Assembly (NCBI RefSeq): GCF_000981785.2
Contig: NZ_CP011304.1
Location: forward strand, 1,770,001 to 1,802,000
Reading direction: 5' to 3'
Length of the DNA: 32,000 nt
Origin: Microcystis aeruginosa NIES-2549
GTDB lineage: Bacteria; Cyanobacteriota; Cyanobacteriia; Cyanobacteriales; Microcystaceae
The notes under the pieces are model-generated. The model was not told the origin of the DNA and ran no database searches. It saw nothing but the letters and a program-made list of their open reading frames with translations. This document shows, in pieces, positions 4,344 to 20,654 of this stretch (positions within the stretch are counted from its first letter, which is position 1; each line of letters begins with the position of its first letter). Position numbers and translations under genes: made by a program.

Positions 4344-4385
4344 AATAGGCAAAAGGCAATAGGCAATAGGCAATAGGCAAGAGGT
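4344..4385. repeat. Heptamer tandem array (AATAGGC-type) x6
   Basis: aataggc aaaaggc aataggc aataggc aataggc aagaggt. Confidence 0.9.
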
Positions 4386-4420: not shown

Positions 4421-4450
4421 TAACTGATAACTGATTACTGATAACTGATT
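4421..4450. repeat. Heptamer tandem array (TAACTGA-type) x4, abutting the permease stop codon
   Basis: taactga taactga ttactga taactga tt. The last base overlaps the stop codon at 4450-4452. Confidence 0.9.
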
Positions 4451-5238
4451 CAATCCCGTTGATGGGAGAATTGATAAGCGCCGACGATTGAGAGAAGAAT
4501 AGCGACGATTAATAAAATGGGGATAGCGAACCAAGGAAATTGATTAATATCGTAGGCTGCGGCTCTTAATCCCAGACTAGCATAGGTGAGGGGTAAAGAA
4601 TAAACAATAATTTTTAATGGCCAGGGTAAGGTTTGGGGATCGAAAAAAGTTGCTCCTAAAAAAGACATCGGCACGATTAAAAAGTTATTATACAGACCGA
4701 CACTTTCGAGGGATTTAACTCGCAATCCGACAATTGCCCCTAAACCGGCAAAGACGGCACAATTTAAGATTAAAACTAATAAAAAGAGGGGATTGAGAAA
4801 ACTGACAAATTTTCCTGTAAATAAGATAGCAACGAGAATCACTGATGCAGAAGTCATTACACCGCGCAAAATTCCCGCGAAAACTTTGCCTAAAAATAAT
4901 GAGAGGGGATGGACGGGAAGTAATAATAATTCCTCGAAGGTTTTACTAAATAAGCGATCGCCACATATCGAAAAGGTGGTTCCCCCGAAACTGATCGCCA
5001 TTGAGGACAGGGCCACCATTCCGGGTAAAATAAATTCTAGATAAGAATCGCCGATCGAGGGTTTCATCGAGCGATCGAGGGCGCTTCCCAACCCCAACCC
5101 GAAACCGATAATATAGATTAGGGGAGAAACTAAACCTGTGGCGGCGATCTGAAGGACTCTCGCGCGTAAATCTAGCCATTCTCCCCAAAATACGGTTAAA
5201 GTGTCTGTTAATATCGTCTGAGCTTGAGCTAGTTTCAC
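4450..5238 (-). CDS. ABC-2 type transporter permease
   Basis: 262 aa with about six hydrophobic segments; length and pattern are typical of ABC-2/NodJ-like permeases. The start is GTG at 5236-5238. No ATPase gene is adjacent. Confidence 0.75.
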   Translation of the reverse strand: MKLAQAQTILTDTLTVFWGEWLDLRARVLQIAATGLVSPLIYIIGFGLGLGSALDRSMKPSIGDSYLEFILPGMVALSSMAISFGGTTFSICGDRLFSKTFEELLLLPVHPLSLFLGKVFAGILRGVMTSASVILVAILFTGKFVSFLNPLFLLVLILNCAVFAGLGAIVGLRVKSLESVGLYNNFLIVPMSFLGATFFDPQTLPWPLKIIVYSLPLTYASLGLRAAAYDINQFPWFAIPILLIVAILLSIVGAYQFSHQRD

Positions 5239-5470
5239 TGGTATTTTGGTTAATTAGTAAATATACTTTTAATAATAATTAATAATTGTCCCCTTTTTCA
5301 AGAGTGGCTCATCCCAGTTTAGTAAAATGTAGGGTGCGTTAGACGGCGACAATCTTTGCTTAAACTTGAATCTAACAATCCGTCGCAACGCACCACACCT
5401 ATCATTAATTTAATTTGGTGCGTTACGCTATCGCTAACGCACCCTACTGGACTGGTATTTTGGTTAATTA

Positions 5471-7152
5471 GGGTTTGCTGAATAATGGTAAAAACCTTAC
5501 AGGAAAGGGCTTTTAGCTTGATTGAGAGCTTCCCAAATGCACTTAAATCTGCTAGAATCTCTTAAAACCCTTGCATCACCCTTGCATCTTCTCTAATTAG
5601 TGCTAATGTACCGTAAAAGCGAGTTACCCTCAACCCCACCAGAAAACTTCGAGCTGCCCTTTGAGGGGAAATTATCCCAAGACAATCGTTGGGTAATTAT
5701 GGCCAACCTCATTCCCTGGTCAGAATTTGAAGCGGAATACGCATCACTTTTTTCAGAAGAAATGGGCACACCCGCCAAAACATTCAGGACAGCACTCGGA
5801 GCATTAATTATTAAAGAAAAATTAGGAACAAGCGATAGAGAAACGGTAGAACAAATCAAAGAAAATCCTTATTTACAATACTTCTTGGGGTTTTCATCCT
5901 ACAGCAATGAACCCCGGTTTGAAGCGTCAATGTTGGTTCACTTTCGAGAAAGAATCACTCTGGAACTAATTAATAAAGTGAATCGCTTTATGGTCAAAAA
6001 TTCGAGAGAAATAAAAGAAGAAGAAAATACCGAAAAAAAGTTAGAGAGCGAAACCCAAAGTCAACCAGAAAATCGAGGTAAATTAATTTTAGATGCCAGT
6101 TGTGCGCCCGCAGATATTAGTTATCCTACGGATTTAAACCTGTTAAATCAAGGAAGAAAACAAACCGAAAAAATTATTGATATTCTCTATGAAACTTTAA
6201 AAGGAAAACTTGTTCAAAAACCGAGAACCTATCGTCTTCTAGCCAGAAAAAGTTATTTAGAAGTAGCGAAAAAAAGAAAACCTACCGTCAAACAAAGACG
6301 AAAAGCTCTGAAAAGACAACTGCAATATCTGAAAAGAAATCTCGACCATATTGAACAACTTTTAGCAGAAGGAGCCTCTCTACAAAGCTTGAAAAAAAGA
6401 GACTATAAGCTGTTATTAGTAGTCACAGAAGTTTATCGCCAACAACTCTGGATGTACCAAAATAACAAACAGAGTATTGAAGACAGAATTGTCAGCTTAA
6501 CTCAACCCCACATCCGTCCGATAGTCAGAGGAAAAGCTGGAAAACCCGTAGAATTTGGGGCTAAATTCTCAGCAAGCTGTATAGATGGTTACATATTTTT
6601 AGACCGAATTAGTTGGGATAACTTTAATGAATCAGGAGATTTAAAAGCACAAATAGAAGCTTATTATGACTATACAGGATACTATCCAGAATCAGTTCAT
6701 GTGGACAAAATTTATCGAACCAGAGAAAACCGAGCTTGGTGTAAAGAAAGGGGAATCAGAATCAGTGGTCCCCCATTAGGAAGACCAGCCAAAAATGTTA
6801 GTAAAGAACAAAAGAAACAAGCTACCGATGATGAGAGGATTCGGAATTGTATAGAGGGCAAATTTGGACAGGGGAAAAGAAGATTTAGCTTAGGTAAAGT
6901 GATGGCTAAACTTCCTCATACTTCCTTTTCAGCGATTGCTATTACTTTTTTAGTCATGAATCTTTCTAACCTGTTGAGGCAGGTTTTTTGGGCTTTTTTA
7001 TGTCTGAAATGGAAAAACAGCACTTTTTCTCGGTCAATGATTAGGATAAGTTATAACTTAAAAATTAATCAACAACTAAAGCTTATGCTTGTAGCTAAGT
7101 GAAATCATTGATTAAGAGACCTGTACTTTTCAATGACTTTTTCAGCAAACCC
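5471..7152 (+). mobile_element. 1682-bp insertion sequence, IS5/IS1182-superfamily
   Basis: Terminal inverted repeats are GGGTTTGCTGAA (5471-5482) and TTCAGCAAACCC (7141-7152). TAATTA is duplicated at 5465-5470 and 7153-7158. The uninterrupted repeat units read ggttaattagtaaat, which confirms a simple insertion. Confidence 0.95.
5600..7102 (+). CDS. IS5/IS1182-type DDE transposase (DUF772-like N-terminus)
   Basis: 500 aa. The N-terminal block LPFEGKLSQDNRWVIMANLIPWSEFE...ALGALIIKEKLGTSDRETVEQIKENPYLQYFLGF and the C-terminal IEGKFGQGKRRF...FLVMNL are typical of this transposase class. Confidence 0.9.
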   Translation: MLMYRKSELPSTPPENFELPFEGKLSQDNRWVIMANLIPWSEFEAEYASLFSEEMGTPAKTFRTALGALIIKEKLGTSDRETVEQIKENPYLQYFLGFSSYSNEPRFEASMLVHFRERITLELINKVNRFMVKNSREIKEEENTEKKLESETQSQPENRGKLILDASCAPADISYPTDLNLLNQGRKQTEKIIDILYETLKGKLVQKPRTYRLLARKSYLEVAKKRKPTVKQRRKALKRQLQYLKRNLDHIEQLLAEGASLQSLKKRDYKLLLVVTEVYRQQLWMYQNNKQSIEDRIVSLTQPHIRPIVRGKAGKPVEFGAKFSASCIDGYIFLDRISWDNFNESGDLKAQIEAYYDYTGYYPESVHVDKIYRTRENRAWCKERGIRISGPPLGRPAKNVSKEQKKQATDDERIRNCIEGKFGQGKRRFSLGKVMAKLPHTSFSAIAITFLVMNLSNLLRQVFWAFLCLKWKNSTFSRSMIRISYNLKINQQLKLMLVAK

Positions 7153-7852
7153 TAATTAGTAAATACACTTTTAATAATAATTAATAATTGTCCCCTTTTT
7201 CAAGAGTGGCTCATCCCAGTTTAGTAAAATGTAGGGTGCGTTAGACGGCGACAATCTCTGCTTAAACTTGAATCTAACAATCCGTCGCAACGCACCACAC
7301 CTATCATTAATTTAATTTGGTGCGTTACGCTATCGCTAACGCACCCTACTGGACTGGTATTTTGGTTAATTAGTAAATACACTTTTAATAATAATTAATA
7401 ATTGTCCCCTTTTTCAAGAGTGGCTCATCCCAGTTTAGTAAAATGTAGGGTGCGTTAGACGGCGACAATCTCTGCTTAAACTTGAATCTAACAATCCGTC
7501 GCAACGCACCACACCTATCATTAATTTAATTTGGTGCGTTACGCTATCGCTAACGCACCCTACTGGACTGGTATTTTGGTTAATTAGTAAATACACTTTT
7601 AATAATAATTAATAATTGTCCCCTTTTTCAAGAGTGGCTCATCCCAGTTTAGTAAAATGTAGGGTGCGTTAGACGGCGACAATCTCTGCTTAAACTTGAA
7701 TCTAACAATCCGTCGCAACGCACCACACCTATCATTAATTTAATTTGGTGCGTTACGCTATCGCTAACGCACCCTACTTATGATAAAATGCTGTCAAGGT
7801 CAGGGAGGGAAAACTTGCAATTATTCACTCAATAAAATAACTGATAGCCGAG

Positions 7853-9979
7853 ATGAAACCCTGTTACTGCATTAATCCCGATTGTTCTCAACCAGACCAT
7901 CCGAGTAATAATAACTCGAATACTCGTTACTGTCAAAGTTGTCGCTCTGAGTTGTTGTTAAATGGTCAATATAGAGTAAGTCGGTTATTGAGTGATAAGA
8001 CCGGTTTTGGGGTTGTTTATGAAGCTTTTGAAGGTTTTACAGCCAAAATCCTCAAGGTATTACAAGAAAGATGGAATAATGACCCGAAGGCAGTGGAATT
8101 ATTTAAACGGGAATATGAAGTTTTATTAGAGTTGAGTCGTCAAAATGTCACCGGTGTTCCTCGCGCAGATGCCTATTTTCAATATTCCACAAGGGAAGGG
8201 AAAATATTACACTGTTTAGTTATGGAAAAAGTGGAGGGGATTAATTTAGAACAGTGGCTAAAGCAGTATGATAAGTTAAGTCAAAAACGAGCCTTAAAAT
8301 GGCTGAGAGAAATTACTTTAATTCTCGATAAAATTCATCAACAGAATTGGCTGCATCGAGATATTAAACCCCCTAATATCATGCTGCGGAATAGTGGCGA
8401 GTTGGTGTTAATTGATTTTGGCACAGCAAGGGAAGAAACCCAAACCTATCATCAAAAGGTCAAAGGTCAACAGGTAACAGGTATTACCTCAGCCGGATAT
8501 ACAGCCAATGAACAACAACATGGTCAAGCAGTGATTCAATCAGATTTTCATGCTTTAGGACGAACTTTTGTGCATTTATTAACCGGAAAACATCCTTTAG
8601 AAATTTATGATCCGATTAATGATGTTTTACCTTGGCGAGAAGAAACGGAAAATATTCACCCGTTATTGTTGGATTTTATTGATGAGTTGATGGGAAGATT
8701 ACCCAAGAATAGACCAGCTAATACTAGGGTTATTTTACAGCGTTTGGATGAGATTGAAAGGCAATTAAAGTTACCTCCTATAACTCCTAATAGACCATCT
8801 CCACCACCACCAAATCCGCTGCCTGTTGTAACTCAAAAACAACCGCCAGTTATTCCTAAGATTAATCCTTCTCCGCCGGTTTCACCCGTAGCTGTACCCA
8901 AAAAAACACCAGCACAACTGGTTAAAAATAATAATCTGAGAAATGGATTAATAGCGCTCAGTGGCGTTTTGTTATTAGGAATAGGAATAACTCAAGGTTA
9001 CGGTTATTTTAAAAGTCAAGAAGTAAATCCTCAAATTGCACCAATAAACTCACCCACCAATAAACTCACCACAAGAAAAAAAATTTCAGAACATAGTTTT
9101 CTCGATAAAACCCTAACTGGTCATTCTAACTGGGTTTTGTCAGTGGTATATAGTCCCGATAGCCGCTATTTAGCTAGTGGGGGTAGTGACAATACTATCA
9201 AAATTTGGGAAGTAGCAACGGGAAAACAATTGCGTACTCTTACTGGTCATTCTCGCGGGGTTGAGTCAGTGGTATATAGTCCCGATGGCCGCTATTTAGC
9301 TAGTGGGAGTGCTGACAAAACTATCAAAATTTGGGAAGTAGCAACCGGAAAACAATTGCGTACTCTTACTGGTCATTCTAGCGGGGTTTTGTCAGTGGTA
9401 TATAGTCCCGATGGCCGCTATTTAGCTAGTGGTAGTTGGGACAATACTATCAAAATTTGGGAGGTAGCAACTGAAAGAGAATTGCGTACCCTTACTGGTC
9501 ATTCTAGCGGGGTTTTGTCAGTGGTATATAGTCCCGATGGCCGCTATTTAGCTAGTGGTAGTTGGGACAATACTATCAAAATTTGGGAGGTGGCAACTGA
9601 AAGAGAATTGCGTACCCTTACTGGTCATTCTAGCGGGGTTTTGTCAGTGGTATATAGTCCCGATGGCCGCTATTTAGCTAGTGGTAGTTGGGACAATACT
9701 ATCAAAATTTGGGAGGTGGCAACGGGAAAAGAACTGCGTACCCTTCCCAGTCATTCTGACAGGGTTGAGTCAGTGGTATATAGTCCCGATGGCCGCTATT
9801 TAGCTAGTGGTAGTTGGGACAATACTATCAAAATTTGGGAGGTAGCAACGGGAAAAGAACTGCGTATTCTTACTGGTCATTCTTACCGGGTTTATTCAGT
9901 AGCATATAGTCCCGATGGCCGCTATTTAGCTAGTGGAAGTGGTGACAAAACTATCAAAATTTGGCGGGTGGGACAGTAA
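7853..9979 (+). CDS. Ser/Thr protein kinase with 4-Cys N-terminal prefix, Pro-rich linker, one predicted TM helix and a 7-repeat WD40 domain
   Basis: The N-terminus has CxxxxxC...CxxC (CYCINPDC...CQSC). The kinase motifs are GFGVVYEA, AKILK, HRDIKPPN and DFG. The Pro-rich stretch is PPITPNRPSPPPPNPLP. The hydrophobic segment is LIALSGVLLLGIGITQGYGYF. Seven LTGHS...SPDGRYLASGS.D.TIKIWEV repeats follow. Confidence 0.9.
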   Translation: MKPCYCINPDCSQPDHPSNNNSNTRYCQSCRSELLLNGQYRVSRLLSDKTGFGVVYEAFEGFTAKILKVLQERWNNDPKAVELFKREYEVLLELSRQNVTGVPRADAYFQYSTREGKILHCLVMEKVEGINLEQWLKQYDKLSQKRALKWLREITLILDKIHQQNWLHRDIKPPNIMLRNSGELVLIDFGTAREETQTYHQKVKGQQVTGITSAGYTANEQQHGQAVIQSDFHALGRTFVHLLTGKHPLEIYDPINDVLPWREETENIHPLLLDFIDELMGRLPKNRPANTRVILQRLDEIERQLKLPPITPNRPSPPPPNPLPVVTQKQPPVIPKINPSPPVSPVAVPKKTPAQLVKNNNLRNGLIALSGVLLLGIGITQGYGYFKSQEVNPQIAPINSPTNKLTTRKKISEHSFLDKTLTGHSNWVLSVVYSPDSRYLASGGSDNTIKIWEVATGKQLRTLTGHSRGVESVVYSPDGRYLASGSADKTIKIWEVATGKQLRTLTGHSSGVLSVVYSPDGRYLASGSWDNTIKIWEVATERELRTLTGHSSGVLSVVYSPDGRYLASGSWDNTIKIWEVATERELRTLTGHSSGVLSVVYSPDGRYLASGSWDNTIKIWEVATGKELRTLPSHSDRVESVVYSPDGRYLASGSWDNTIKIWEVATGKELRILTGHSYRVYSVAYSPDGRYLASGSGDKTIKIWRVGQ
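9113..9976 (+). repeat. 126-bp intragenic tandem repeats (WD40 units) x6.9, nearly identical at the DNA level
   Basis: Unit starts are 9113, 9239, 9365, 9491, 9617, 9743 and 9869. The units at 9365 and 9491 differ at a single nucleotide (gaggtagc vs gaggtggc). Confidence 0.95.
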
Positions 9980-13301: not shown

Positions 13302-13628
13302 GGGTCTGCTGAAAAAGTTTCTCGTGGGGGCAGGGTGTGGGGTGTGGGGTGTGGGGTGTAGGGTTTTACCGATTTTCAGGACGTTCGGCGAAGACTTCGG
13401 CGTGAGCTTTTGTCGAACGCTCAGTCGAACGCTCAGTCGAGTGGACGGTAAGGCTTCGACGGTGAGATCAGCCGAACCGCTTGTCGAACCGCCAAGGTCA
13501 ATTACCTAATTTTCAGGGAAAAAGTCCCAGAATTTTCCCCCCGATCACTCCCATATCCGGTACTTTTTGATTTCCAAAAGGTCTAAAAGTTTTACCCAAC
13601 AAGGTTTTCAGATTTATTCAGCCAACCC
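13302..13628 (-). mobile_element. 327-bp MITE derived from the IS5/IS1182-like family at 5471-7152
   Basis: The left end GGGTCTGCTGAAAAAGT matches the IS right end (reverse complement) at 16/17. The reverse complement of the right end, GGGTTGGCTGAATAAATCTGAAAACCTT, matches the IS left end at 23/28. TAGGCTA is duplicated at 13295-13301 and 13629-13635. There is no transposase; the interior contains a GGGTGTG heptamer array (13334-13364) and a TCGAACGCTCAG duplication. Confidence 0.85.
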
Positions 13629-14400: not shown

Positions 14401-14435
14401 TCAGTTATCAGTTATCAGTTATCAGTTATCAGTGG
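14401..14435. repeat. Heptamer array (TCAGTTA) x5, immediately upstream of the larB start
   Basis: tcagtta x4 followed by tcagtgg. Confidence 0.95.
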
Positions 14436-14522
14436 GTAAGTTAACAGTTATCAGATTTGAGTTTTAAGTGAGCAGTATGTGTTAAGTGACCAGTATTAAA
14501 TAGCAGTTTCTTGCCATCTTTT

Positions 14523-14571
14523 CACTGATTACTGATCACTGATTACTGATTACTGCTCACTGATTACTGAT
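14523..14571. repeat. Heptamer array (YACTGAT) x7, in inverse orientation to 14401-14435 and abutting the rnj stop
   Basis: cactgat tactgat cactgat tactgat tactgct cactgat tactgat. ACTGAT is the complement of ATCAGT in the other array. Confidence 0.95.
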
Positions 14572-17457: not shown

Positions 17458-17460
17458 TGA

Positions 17461-17500
17461 TCAGTTATCAGTTATCAGTTATCAGTTATCAGTTATCAGC
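17461..17500. repeat. Heptamer array (TCAGTTA) x5.7, immediately upstream of the dapA start
   Basis: tcagtta x5 followed by tcagc. Confidence 0.95.
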
Positions 17501-20570: not shown

Positions 20571-20654
20571 ACTGATGGCTGATAACTGATAACTGATCAC
20601 TGATAACTGATAACTGATCACTGATAACTGATCACTGATAACTGATAACTGATT
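20571..20654. repeat. Heptamer array (ACTGATA/ACTGATC) x12
   Basis: actgatg gctgata actgata actgatc actgata actgata actgatc actgata actgatc actgata actgata actgatt. Confidence 0.95.

Follow-up and report, generated by a model that had tools for sequence, protein, structure and literature searches.

A probable REP cluster between divergent permease and kinase genes of Microcystis aeruginosa: tandem copies of a promoter region with a RAYT-associated GTAG REP dimer

In the window, by which we mean the whole 32-kb stretch of Microcystis aeruginosa DNA analyzed here, a tandem array lies between two divergent genes, one for an ABC-2 permease and one for a protein kinase, both in agreement with a first-pass annotation of this DNA. 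The array consists of four head-to-tail 214-bp units spanning 5237-7778, with copy 2 interrupted by an IS5-family insertion sequence of 1.68 kb. The genes and units are as follows.

4450..5238, minus strand: ABC-2 type transporter permease gene; the array begins at its GTG start codon
5237..7778, unstranded: entire array of four 214-bp units; repeat sequence 854 nt, insertion 1688 nt
5238..5451, unstranded: unit copy 1, with T5264 and T5356 against C elsewhere
5452..5471, unstranded: left part of unit copy 2, as far as the IS target site
7153..7353, unstranded: unit copy 2, right fragment
7354..7567, unstranded: unit copy 3
7568..7778, unstranded: unit copy 4, adjoining the conserved kinase-proximal flank TTATGATAAAATG
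7781-7789: possible extended -10 TGATAAAAT for the kinase, just outside the array, proposed from the sequence alone
7853..9979, plus strand: Ser/Thr protein kinase with WD40 repeats, divergent from the permease

The first-pass description of four near-identical tandem units is borne out by three approaches. Tandem Repeats Finder reports a period of 214 with 100% matches (score 1252) over 7153-7778, a separate repeat search finds a further copy at 5237-5471, and an alignment of the four copies with the insertion taken out gives a mean identity of 99%. Without the insert the array is 854 nt, or 4 x 214 minus 2, and its periodicity runs over 5237-7778. The sole internal differences between copies are indeed the two substitutions originally noticed, T instead of C at 5264 and 5356, both in copy 1; the final 3 nt of copy 4 also deviate, because the array ends there. 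The copies had been judged too similar for old decay, and we concur: since 0-2 substitutions separate them, the amplification is very recent. All inter-repeat sequence is itself repeated identically, so there are no unique spacers and CRISPR was rightly rejected.

At the level of short motifs, the 9-mer GGTGCGTTA has 12 exact occurrences in the window against 0.13 expected (0/100 shuffles), and the fourth site of each unit is a one-mismatch variant, CAACGCACC; the earlier count of 16 copies thus holds for the degenerate (T/C) form but not for exact matches. The 14-nt outer arms proposed to form a helix, GTAGGGTGCGTTAG/CTAACGCACCCTAC, match exactly. The hexamer TAAAAT at 7439-7444 adjoins the core directly, rather than lying 1 nt before it as first described.

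Each unit is composed of ~70 nt of the native permease upstream/promoter region and a 119-nt inverted dimer of GTAG-tagged repetitive extragenic palindromes (REPs), made up of a long form of 66 nt and a short one of 31 nt.

5238..5306, minus strand: native ABC-2 permease upstream region, conserved in alleles without REPs
5452-5471 plus 7160-7208, 7354-7422 and 7568-7636, minus strand: repeats of the permease upstream region
5301..5272, minus strand: promoter-like site TTGAAA-18-TATTAT, a sequence match
7203..7174, 7417..7388 and 7631..7602, minus strand: promoter-like sites in the other copies
5307..5328, plus strand: 22-nt linker gctcatcccagtttagtaaaat
5329..5394, plus strand: long-form REP; other copies at 7231-7296, 7445-7510 and 7659-7724
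5395..5416, unstranded: 22-nt dimer spacer ACACCTATCATTAATTTAATTT, related to (A)CCTCTATCATTAAATT
5417..5447, minus strand: short-form REP, inverted; other copies at 7319-7349, 7533-7563 and 7747-7777

The division of the unit into an AT-rich half and a GC-richer core, as first drawn, corresponds to two real parts; what it missed is that the AT-rich half is not part of the element at all but belongs to the ABC-2 permease gene, as its native promoter and 5' leader. The long-form REP of the core combines the GTAG tag and the 9-nt arm GGTGCGTTA with a 5-bp extension (GACGG/CCGTC) that has one bulged G, an AT-rich loop of 31 nt and the 3' arm CAACGCACC. The short form, read on the minus strand, is GTAG-GGTGCGTTA-GCGATAGCG-TAACGCACC, a hairpin of 9 bp, a bulged G, 2 bp and a tetraloop; its base stem and bulge are the same as those of the 66-nt form. 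Both REPs of every unit in the window bear the GTAG tag, and no further REP copy occurs elsewhere within the 32 kb. The array's spacer is related to (A)CCTCTATCATTAAATT, the conserved spacer of other Microcystis REP dimers. The 3' part of the linker, AGTAAAAT, also flanks long REPs of the array's subfamily elsewhere in Microcystis, among them the copy that lies upstream of a RAYT gene.

Two mutually exclusive folds had been proposed for the core, and both can be computed: with RNA parameters the outer-helix fold reaches -43.2 kcal/mol and the two local hairpins -35.8 kcal/mol. The minimum-energy fold, both as RNA and as DNA, is the 14-bp outer helix plus the inner helix. Compared with shuffles, the core folds much more stably (z = -6.9 for the plus and -7.1 for the minus strand), as expected because an inverted REP dimer gives a strong fold automatically. 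As DNA, the short form alone folds at -11.1 kcal/mol (z = -6.0), and GTAG is unpaired in the DNA fold. At the family level, it is the two-hairpin fold that is backed by covariation. In 116 distinct long REPs, collected by demanding a GTAG head, the five positions past the 9-bp stem pair in 91-97% of sequences, with 3-6 pair types and one bulged G required. Shuffled arms pair at 51-95% on average; at positions 2-5 their mean pairing is 51-74%, with maxima of 62-79%, and position 1 of the extension, nearly always G:C, does not differ from shuffles.

The motif GTAG-GGTGCGTTA...TAACGCACC is dispersed in Microcystis, in many other cyanobacteria and in some giant sulfur bacteria. Its F..R..F pattern was found at more than 120 loci, mostly cyanobacterial among the matches listed, with several loci per genome; among the same matches, one Microcystis MAG alone contributes five (L010, L043, L099, L117 and L121). 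A census of the short form comprised 214 oriented scans over both strands. The GTAG head appears in 101 of these; each hairpin is counted twice because both strands were scanned, so a tag on one side scores in half of the scans, and the tag is indeed on one side only. The window's loop, GCGATAGCG, is the second commonest in this census. GTAG-tagged hairpins also occur singly, while the same dimer architecture with its conserved spacer is found at other Microcystis loci and tandem arrays of REP plus flank in L046, L058, L105 and L117. TAAAAT is part of the flank that moves with the long-REP subfamily at other loci. According to passages of PMC3733652, cyanobacteria have GTAG REPs, the commonest dimers of which carry GTAG on the outside. 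The supplements for the published GTAG-12/15/16 families contained no match to the motif, the palindrome reported around Anabaena variabilis GTAG-15 dimers was not found in the collected loci, and a literature search for the 9-mer strings returned coincidental primers only.

RAYT, or TnpA-REP, is a single-strand-DNA HuH enzyme that recognizes hairpins of this kind. RAYT-like ORFs adjoin REPs in L064, L071, L091, L099 and L119. In five Microcystis loci (L099 and L133 to L136) a RAYT gene is directly preceded by a long REP and followed by REPs or REP dimers; by eye, the upstream REP in L099 and L133 is much like the window's long REP and has the AGTAAAAT flank in common. With NCBIfam NF047646, "REP-associated tyrosine transposase", the Microcystis protein reaches 187 bits where the cut-off is 80; it also matches Pfam Y1_Tnp and aligns with E. 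coli TnpA-REP 4ER8 at E = 8.6e-36. Its 90%-identity cluster has members that include AKE64410.1 and AOC52808.1 and that occur on a 4.29-Mb contig. Its motifs, DHFH...WE...YIHYNP, fit the subclass 2.2 signature tabulated in PMC6006769, a paper in which cyanobacteria with long 5'-GT[AG]G REPs are reported to have TnpA-REP subclasses. An IS200/IS605-derived element with end hairpins was rejected, as the Y1 protein reaches 187 bits as a RAYT and only 27 bits as IS200 (cut-off 55). Integron attC sites, with their GTTA...TAAC boxes, bulge and variable loop, were also rejected: the units have no cassettes or ORFs, the gene calls looked at include no integrase-like family, and the family has a 13-nt conserved arm, a GTAG tag and a RAYT gene.

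Alleles of the locus differ in copy number. The ~70-nt permease upstream block is found in all of them, including three (L001, L004 and L006) that keep the AT block and have no REP. One dimer is present in L005, L130, L131 and L132; indeed most natural alleles have one dimer, of which the second REP is often degraded or truncated. Four copies, equal to the array here minus the IS, are present in L002 (NIES-2481; complete genome CP012375), where the array is identical over 900 nt with 0 mismatches. As for the gap that split copy 2 in the first-pass annotation, it is real; the gap, 5472-7152, was not recognized there as an IS5-family insertion sequence with a target duplication.

5472..7152, plus strand: IS5-family insertion sequence (DDE_Tnp_1_2, DUF772; NF033578 IS5 family, 485 bits)
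IS terminal inverted repeats: (G)GGTTTGCTGAA / TTCAGCAAACCC
5465-5471 and 7153-7159: IS target duplication TAATTAG
5600 (GTG) or 5606 (ATG) to 7102, plus strand: IS transposase ORF

Given the REP identity of the hairpins, their association with RAYT, the hairpin covariation, the native AT half and the allelic copy numbers of 0, 1 and 4, all directly observed, the array is probably a REP cluster: a tandem-amplified permease upstream region with a RAYT-associated GTAG REP dimer, later invaded by an IS5-family element. Of the three roles listed in the first pass, none of them preferred there, the evidence favors the last, an amplified REP/MITE-like module, more exactly a GTAG-tagged inverted dimer tied to RAYT and not a TIR/TSD MITE. 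The feature, though real, is unremarkable: a promoter region and a REP pair were duplicated in tandem, recently and in a strain-specific way. A recently amplified REP cluster that carries flanking DNA with it is already described in the REP literature. In a NIES-2481-like M. aeruginosa lineage, the permease upstream region and the REP dimer would have been amplified in tandem to four copies, perhaps through slippage during replication, through unequal exchange, or with RAYT assisting strand transfer at the REP ends, and the IS5-family element would have entered copy 2 still later. The array itself may be selfish or neutral DNA, though it may have gained a function later; its most likely side effects would be on how the divergent permease and kinase promoters are spaced and insulated from each other. 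From the three additional permease promoters, transcription would pass through REP hairpins on its way to the permease gene.

Comparison with known systems places the array close to the GTAG REPs and their RAYTs (E. coli REP/BIME, 4ER8; GTAG-12/15/16, PMC3733652, this family being compared by description only). Shared features are an unpaired 5' GTAG beside a bulged, imperfect palindrome; dispersal, here over several loci per genome among the matches listed; inverted dimers, common and head-out, at distances of 20-100 bp; clusters of dimers reiterated in tandem with flanking DNA; and a Y1/HuH transposase gene, presumably the cognate one, with these REPs on its flanks. What differs here is the long form of 66 nt, with a 5-bp covarying extension and a ~30-nt loop (AT-rich in cyanobacterial copies), beside a 31-nt short form. 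Classical REPs are 20-40 nt long and usually lie downstream of genes. Several points count against the REP-cluster reading: the window contains no REP outside the array; the long form, with its 31-nt loop, exceeds the classical length; the dimer is asymmetric, unlike textbook REPINs; the cluster sits between divergent promoters, not downstream of a gene; and simple microhomology does not account for the junction between units. With REPINs (Bertels and Rainey 2011, PMC3116915) the array shares two inverted REPs and a spacer that form one long hairpin, and the dimer with its conserved spacer recurs as a unit at several Microcystis loci, but the arms are unequal (66 nt vs 31 nt).

The REPs of E. 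coli BIME-2 are reportedly reiterated in tandem in alternating orientation, with a copy number that varies between strains. The same alternating reiteration and strain-variable copy number are seen here, whereas the linker, 95 nt taken over from the promoter region of a gene, is unlike the short motif that serves BIMEs as a dedicated linker.

We consider unlikely a regulatory array of variable copy number kept by selection, in which REP hairpins would bind a host protein, much as IHF and gyrase are bound by E. coli BIMEs, and promoter copies would tune the permease and/or the kinase. Each unit does contain a complete minus-strand promoter-like site (10/12 matches), the array separates two divergent promoters, copy number varies among strains (0, 1 or 4), and REP/BIME protein binding is established in E. 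coli according to passages of PMC2817692 and PMC3479197. However, near-identical copies and an IS in copy 2 suggest recent unconstrained change rather than a maintained device, the prevailing allele has one dimer with an often decayed second REP, and promoter-like sites are not more frequent in the region (9) than in shuffles (7.4 +/- 2.9). We regard as equally doubtful a joint reading in which a single REP/RAYT system, whose recognition core of 13 nt, GTAGGGTGCGTTA, is invariant and which has a previously undescribed long-form REP, spread horizontally among many cyanobacterial orders, giant sulfur bacteria (Thiomargarita, Beggiatoaceae-like MAGs) and a Desulfobacteraceae MAG, and in which its tandem amplification can capture whole promoters, giving in Microcystis arrays of promoters and hairpins whose variable copy number would work as a heritable switch of permease and kinase expression. 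Both parts of it exceed the evidence.

Very unlikely is a battery of small structured RNA genes arranged in tandem, one of the first-pass candidates, in which every unit would have its own TAAAAT -10 promoter and encode an sRNA of ~120 nt. TAAAAT does stand directly 5' of a core with strong folding z-scores on both strands and two stable alternative folds, and tandem sRNA arrays have a cyanobacterial precedent. Against this, no plus-strand promoter-like site in the units reaches 9/12 consensus matches, the only promoter-like sites being on the minus strand and facing the permease; the units contain no terminator-like site and no T-run follows the core; and no Rfam match reaches the gathering or E-value thresholds (best 19 bits vs a gathering score of 65). 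Moreover, TAAAAT and the core belong to a dispersed REP subfamily that is also found upstream of the RAYT gene, the inverted dimer explains the fold, and conspecific strains have 0 or 1 copy at the locus. The precedent itself, the NsiR1 tandem sRNA array of Anabaena, is said to have been described by Ionescu et al. in 2010. Like it, the array is a cyanobacterial intergenic tandem array of short structured units upstream of a gene; here, in contrast, there is no per-unit promoter or terminator signal, the array is neither conserved at the locus among relatives nor a member of a known RNA family, and the units are REPs.

Still less probable is a classical MITE, a deletion derivative of a DDE-transposase IS that moved via its 14-bp terminal inverted repeats and was then duplicated locally. 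The inverted repeats are perfect, and Microcystis is rich in MITEs and IS elements by the passages of PMC3184786 citing Kaneko 2007. However, neither the array nor the single-copy alleles (aaaat|GTAG...CTAC|tgga or tactac) show a target-site duplication beside the core; each inverted repeat is an independent GTAG-tagged hairpin of a type that also exists singly; and, among the matches listed, the only gene recurrently flanked by array-type REPs is the Y1/HuH RAYT, not a DDE transposase. The MaeMITEs of Microcystis (Kaneko 2007 via PMC3184786), listed in that passage at 150-435 bp and defined by TIRs and target duplications, are likewise small structured non-coding repeats of the same genus, but the core here is 119 nt, without target duplication and RAYT-associated. 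An assembly artefact, a collapsed or expanded repeat, is scarcely credible: short-read contigs L003 and L007 to L009 do end inside the core, but two independent records carry the identical four-copy array, one with and one without the IS, copy 1 has private substitutions, and the IS supplies unique anchors.

On the REP-cluster reading, the locus should be annotated as a REP cluster plus an IS, not as an sRNA or CRISPR-like locus. The array explains why short-read Microcystis assemblies break here. A metagenome scan for the tandem junction CGCACCCTACTGGACTGGTATTTTGG gave 0 matches, probably because short-read assemblies cannot span identical 214-bp units, and therefore says nothing on frequency. 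The array is a very young case (0-2 substitutions) of a REP dimer amplified with a complete promoter region, and the natural alleles of 0, 1 and 4 copies, with a datable later IS, form a usable natural series for REP cluster growth and neighbor expression. The family data add a cyanobacterial case to a REP/RAYT literature dominated by proteobacteria, and with it a covarying bulged stem, long and short forms, and occurrence in giant sulfur bacteria.

The junction CTAC-TGGA-CTGG is not accounted for by simple microhomology. For the first duplication a microhomology origin may be considered, as ACTGG is present at both ends, yet both of its copies are retained in the junction (ACTGGACTGG) and TGGA is missing from copy 4. 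TGGA fits the extended REP head TCCA-GTAG of other loci.

The array between the ABC-2 permease gene (minus strand) and the Ser/Thr kinase-WD40 gene (plus strand) is a recently amplified cluster of the REP/RAYT type (repetitive extragenic palindromes and their associated tyrosine transposases) that has captured a promoter segment and carries an inserted IS. The feature is real and had been accurately described in the first-pass annotation, which recognized four near-identical 214-bp units in tandem. Indeed, Tandem Repeats Finder reports a period of 214 bp with 100% matches over 7153-7778, a repeat search places a further unit copy at 5237-5471, and the periodicity spans 5237-7778. When the four copies are aligned with the inserted DNA removed, only two internal substitutions are found, both in copy 1 (T5264 and T5356, with C in the others). 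Copy 2 is interrupted by the following element:

5472-7152, IS5-family insertion sequence with terminal inverted repeats and a TAATTAG target duplication

Its transposase has DDE_Tnp_1_2 and DUF772 domains and scores 485 bits against NF033578. A separate tandem periodicity at 9110-9964 (126 bp, 6.8 copies, 92% matches) lies within the kinase gene and corresponds to its WD40 repeats; it is coding, not a non-coding array.

Each unit consists of an AT-rich half and a 119-nt core, in which a long REP (66 nt) is followed by an inverted short REP (31 nt). Sixteen copies of one 9-mer had been counted across the array; 12 are exact occurrences of GGTGCGTTA, against 0.13 expected, while the fourth site in each unit is the variant CAACGCACC. 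The outer arms, 14 nt each, match exactly. On both strands, the computed fold of the core is much more stable than those of shuffled sequences (z about -7), and the two alternative folds proposed for it, an outer helix around an inner one (-43.2 kcal/mol) or local hairpins (-35.8 kcal/mol), are each stable by computation.

Each core is a dimer of REPs from a family associated with a RAYT. Scanning species-representative genomes with the pattern GGTGCGTTA-N30-60-AACGCACC-N10-40-GGTGCGTTA gave at least 120 loci. Among the matches listed, nearly all are from cyanobacteria (Microcystis, Microcoleaceae, Spirulina, Okeania, Dapis, Trichodesmium, Coleofasciculus, Nostocales and others), the remainder being Thiomargarita, Thiotrichaceae or "Gammaproteobacteria" MAGs and one Desulfobacteraceae MAG. 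In the collected loci, the two arms are either 10-11 nt or 46-52 nt apart, forming two sharply separated size classes. Members of the short class read GTAG-GGTGCGTTA-GCGAYAGCG-TAACGCACC, with GTAG on one side only; as DNA they form a stem of 9 bp plus 2 bp, with a bulged G between the two parts and a tetraloop on top, while GTAG stays unpaired. Second commonest among the loops of this class is that of the window's short REP, GCGATAGCG. According to two published accounts, an unpaired GTAG tag beside a bulged palindrome is the mark of RAYT-recognized REPs (PMC3733652, PMC3479197). The evidence bears out the REP part of an earlier suggestion that the array is an amplified REP/MITE-like module.

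The long class continues from the same base as the short class into an additional stem and a ~30-nt loop, AT-rich in cyanobacterial copies. Across 116 distinct long REPs, five positions past the 9-bp stem are paired in 91-97% of copies, with 3-6 pair types per position, but only if one bulged G is placed beside the 3' arm. When arms were shuffled between copies, positions 2-5 paired in only 51-74% (maximum, 79%); at position 1, almost always G:C, pairing in the 116 copies was no different from that in the arm shuffles. This covariation favors the first of the two proposed folds: local hairpins are what the REP family conserves, and the outer 14-bp helix is the automatic result of setting two such palindromes head-out.

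The GTAG-GGTGCGTTA REPs are also present in sulfur-bacterial and Desulfobacteraceae loci (L012, L013, L031, L036, L037, L040, L050, L067, L087, L094, L110, L113, L123 and L127; MAGs labeled Thiomargarita, Thiotrichaceae/Thiotrichales, "Gammaproteobacteria" or Desulfobacteraceae). GC-rich sequence (e.g., GGCGCGC...) makes up their upper stems and loops, whereas the cyanobacterial loops are AT-rich, a difference that argues against simple bin contamination. These REPs fit the reported gene exchange among cyanobacteria, Beggiatoaceae and Desulfonema (PMC4679880, PMC6390638).

A search for HuH and Y motifs identified six RAYT-like ORFs in the fetched loci, five of them directly adjoining palindromes. 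The Microcystis protein (locus L099) scores 187 bits against the NCBIfam model "REP-associated tyrosine transposase" (cut-off 80), whereas its IS200 score is only 27 bits; further matches are Pfam Y1_Tnp and, at E = 8.6e-36, Escherichia coli TnpA-REP (4ER8). The 90%-identity cluster to which it belongs comprises 57 proteins, among them AKE64410.1 and AOC52808.1; the 15 members listed all come from Microcystis, and several of these are named REP-associated tyrosine transposase. In L099 and L133 to L136, a long REP lies immediately upstream of the RAYT gene, and REPs or REP dimers lie downstream. In L099 and L133, AGTAAAAT precedes the upstream REP, which on visual comparison is very similar to the window's long REP. 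The TAAAAT hexamer, previously read as a -10-like element of the unit, is therefore part of the repeat's own flank. In L133 to L136 (four of four), a HicA_toxin Pfam gene and a 72-residue gene without a Pfam match adjoin the RAYT gene on its upstream side, with very large RHS or lectin/He_PIG repeat protein genes beyond; L133 also has a further small palindromic repeat (GTTGGGTTTCGTTCCTCAACCCAACCTAC) and HIP1-containing "CAAGATCGGCGATCGCACTA" motifs alongside its REPs.

Microcystis aeruginosa assemblies, the complete genome CP012375 (strain NIES-2481; L002) among them, encode an identical permease protein. CP012375 carries the four-copy allele, with 0 mismatches over 900 nt against the window array and no IS. 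Single-core alleles (L005, L130, L131 and L132) often have the second palindrome degraded, truncated or loop-inverted, and zero-core alleles (L001, L004 and L006) have unrelated sequence where the core would be. About 70 nt beside the permease GTG (5238-5306) are conserved in all alleles and contain a minus-strand promoter-like site, TTGAAA-18-TATTAT, directed at the permease gene. Since this block is common to all alleles and the core is not, the AT-rich half is the permease gene's own upstream region, native DNA with a putative promoter recognized by sequence, and the core, richer in GC, is an insert that varies among alleles.

In L131 (VYLJ01000286.1), the sequence past the second GGTGCGTTA joins the kinase ATG directly (GGTGCGTTActactATGaaaccctg); the short-REP 3' arm and the entire kinase upstream region, including the putative -10 TGATAAAAT, are deleted. 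Comparison of L132 with the window's short REP at 5417-5447 shows the loop inverted, GCGATAGCG in the former and CGCTATCGC in the latter, with the arms and 3' CTAC unmoved, resembling a hairpin-loop flip. In the REP-less allele L001 (GCA_009811855.1), positions 9590-9940 are occupied by other tandem repeats, a ~39-nt unit (CCCCCTTGATAAGGGGGGTGCCGATAGGCGGGGGGAT) in about three copies and a ~60-nt unit in two, ending in TAACGCCTAC, which may be a REP remnant. Repeats seem to turn over especially readily in this intergenic spacer.

The four-copy state is very young and specific to one lineage, and the IS insertion came later, since CP012375 has the same array without it. Slippage, unequal exchange or a RAYT-assisted transfer of strands at REP ends may account for the first duplication and the later expansion. 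At the unit junction, an extended REP head (TCCA-GTAG, read CTAC-TGGA) is followed at once by the first base past the permease start codon; TGGA is absent from copy 4, and no simple microhomology model could be derived from the junction. The array adds three extra copies of the putative permease promoter, which would read through REP hairpins, and has moved the putative divergent permease and kinase promoters apart by 0.64 kb, to which the IS adds 1.7 kb.

That these units form a regulatory array maintained by selection is unlikely. More doubtful still is the initially listed candidate, a battery of small structured RNA genes, one per unit: no per-unit promoter or terminator signals were found in the units, no Rfam family matched, and the array is not conserved among the strains' alleles. 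A classical MITE is very improbable, given no target duplication and an associated gene that encodes a Y1 enzyme. An assembly artefact is scarcely credible, because CP012375 carries the identical four-unit array, giving two concordant records; the ending of four short-read contigs (L003 and L007 to L009) inside the core is the expected effect of a repeat.

The amplified REP cluster is thus a further case of a known repeat type, REP clusters with flank having been described before. Elsewhere in Microcystis, a unit recurs in which a long REP is joined through a conserved spacer ((A)CCTCTATCATTAAATT) to an inverted short or long REP; it is a REPIN-like (inverted REP) dimer with GTAG outside. REPs with some flank are in tandem at Microcystis loci L046 (42 bp, three copies), L105 (90 bp, three copies), L117 and L058, and in other taxa at L031, L032, L060, L075, L106 and L125. 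Such dimers and arrays are exactly what Di Nocera et al. describe, preferred dimers being 20-100 bp apart with GTAG outside (PMC3733652). Quentin et al. list cyanobacterial TnpA-REP subclasses with long GT[AG]G REPs (PMC6006769). The window also has many intergenic tandem heptamers (TAACTGA, ACTGATA, AATAGGC, CTTCCCA and others):

1539-1569, 4344-4384, 4421-4449, 13324-13364, 14401-14454, 14524-14571, 17460-17499 and 20571-20653, tandem heptamer repeats

These are the same phenomenon as the TAACTGA-type repeats described in Microcystis and marine Beggiatoaceae (PMC4679880).
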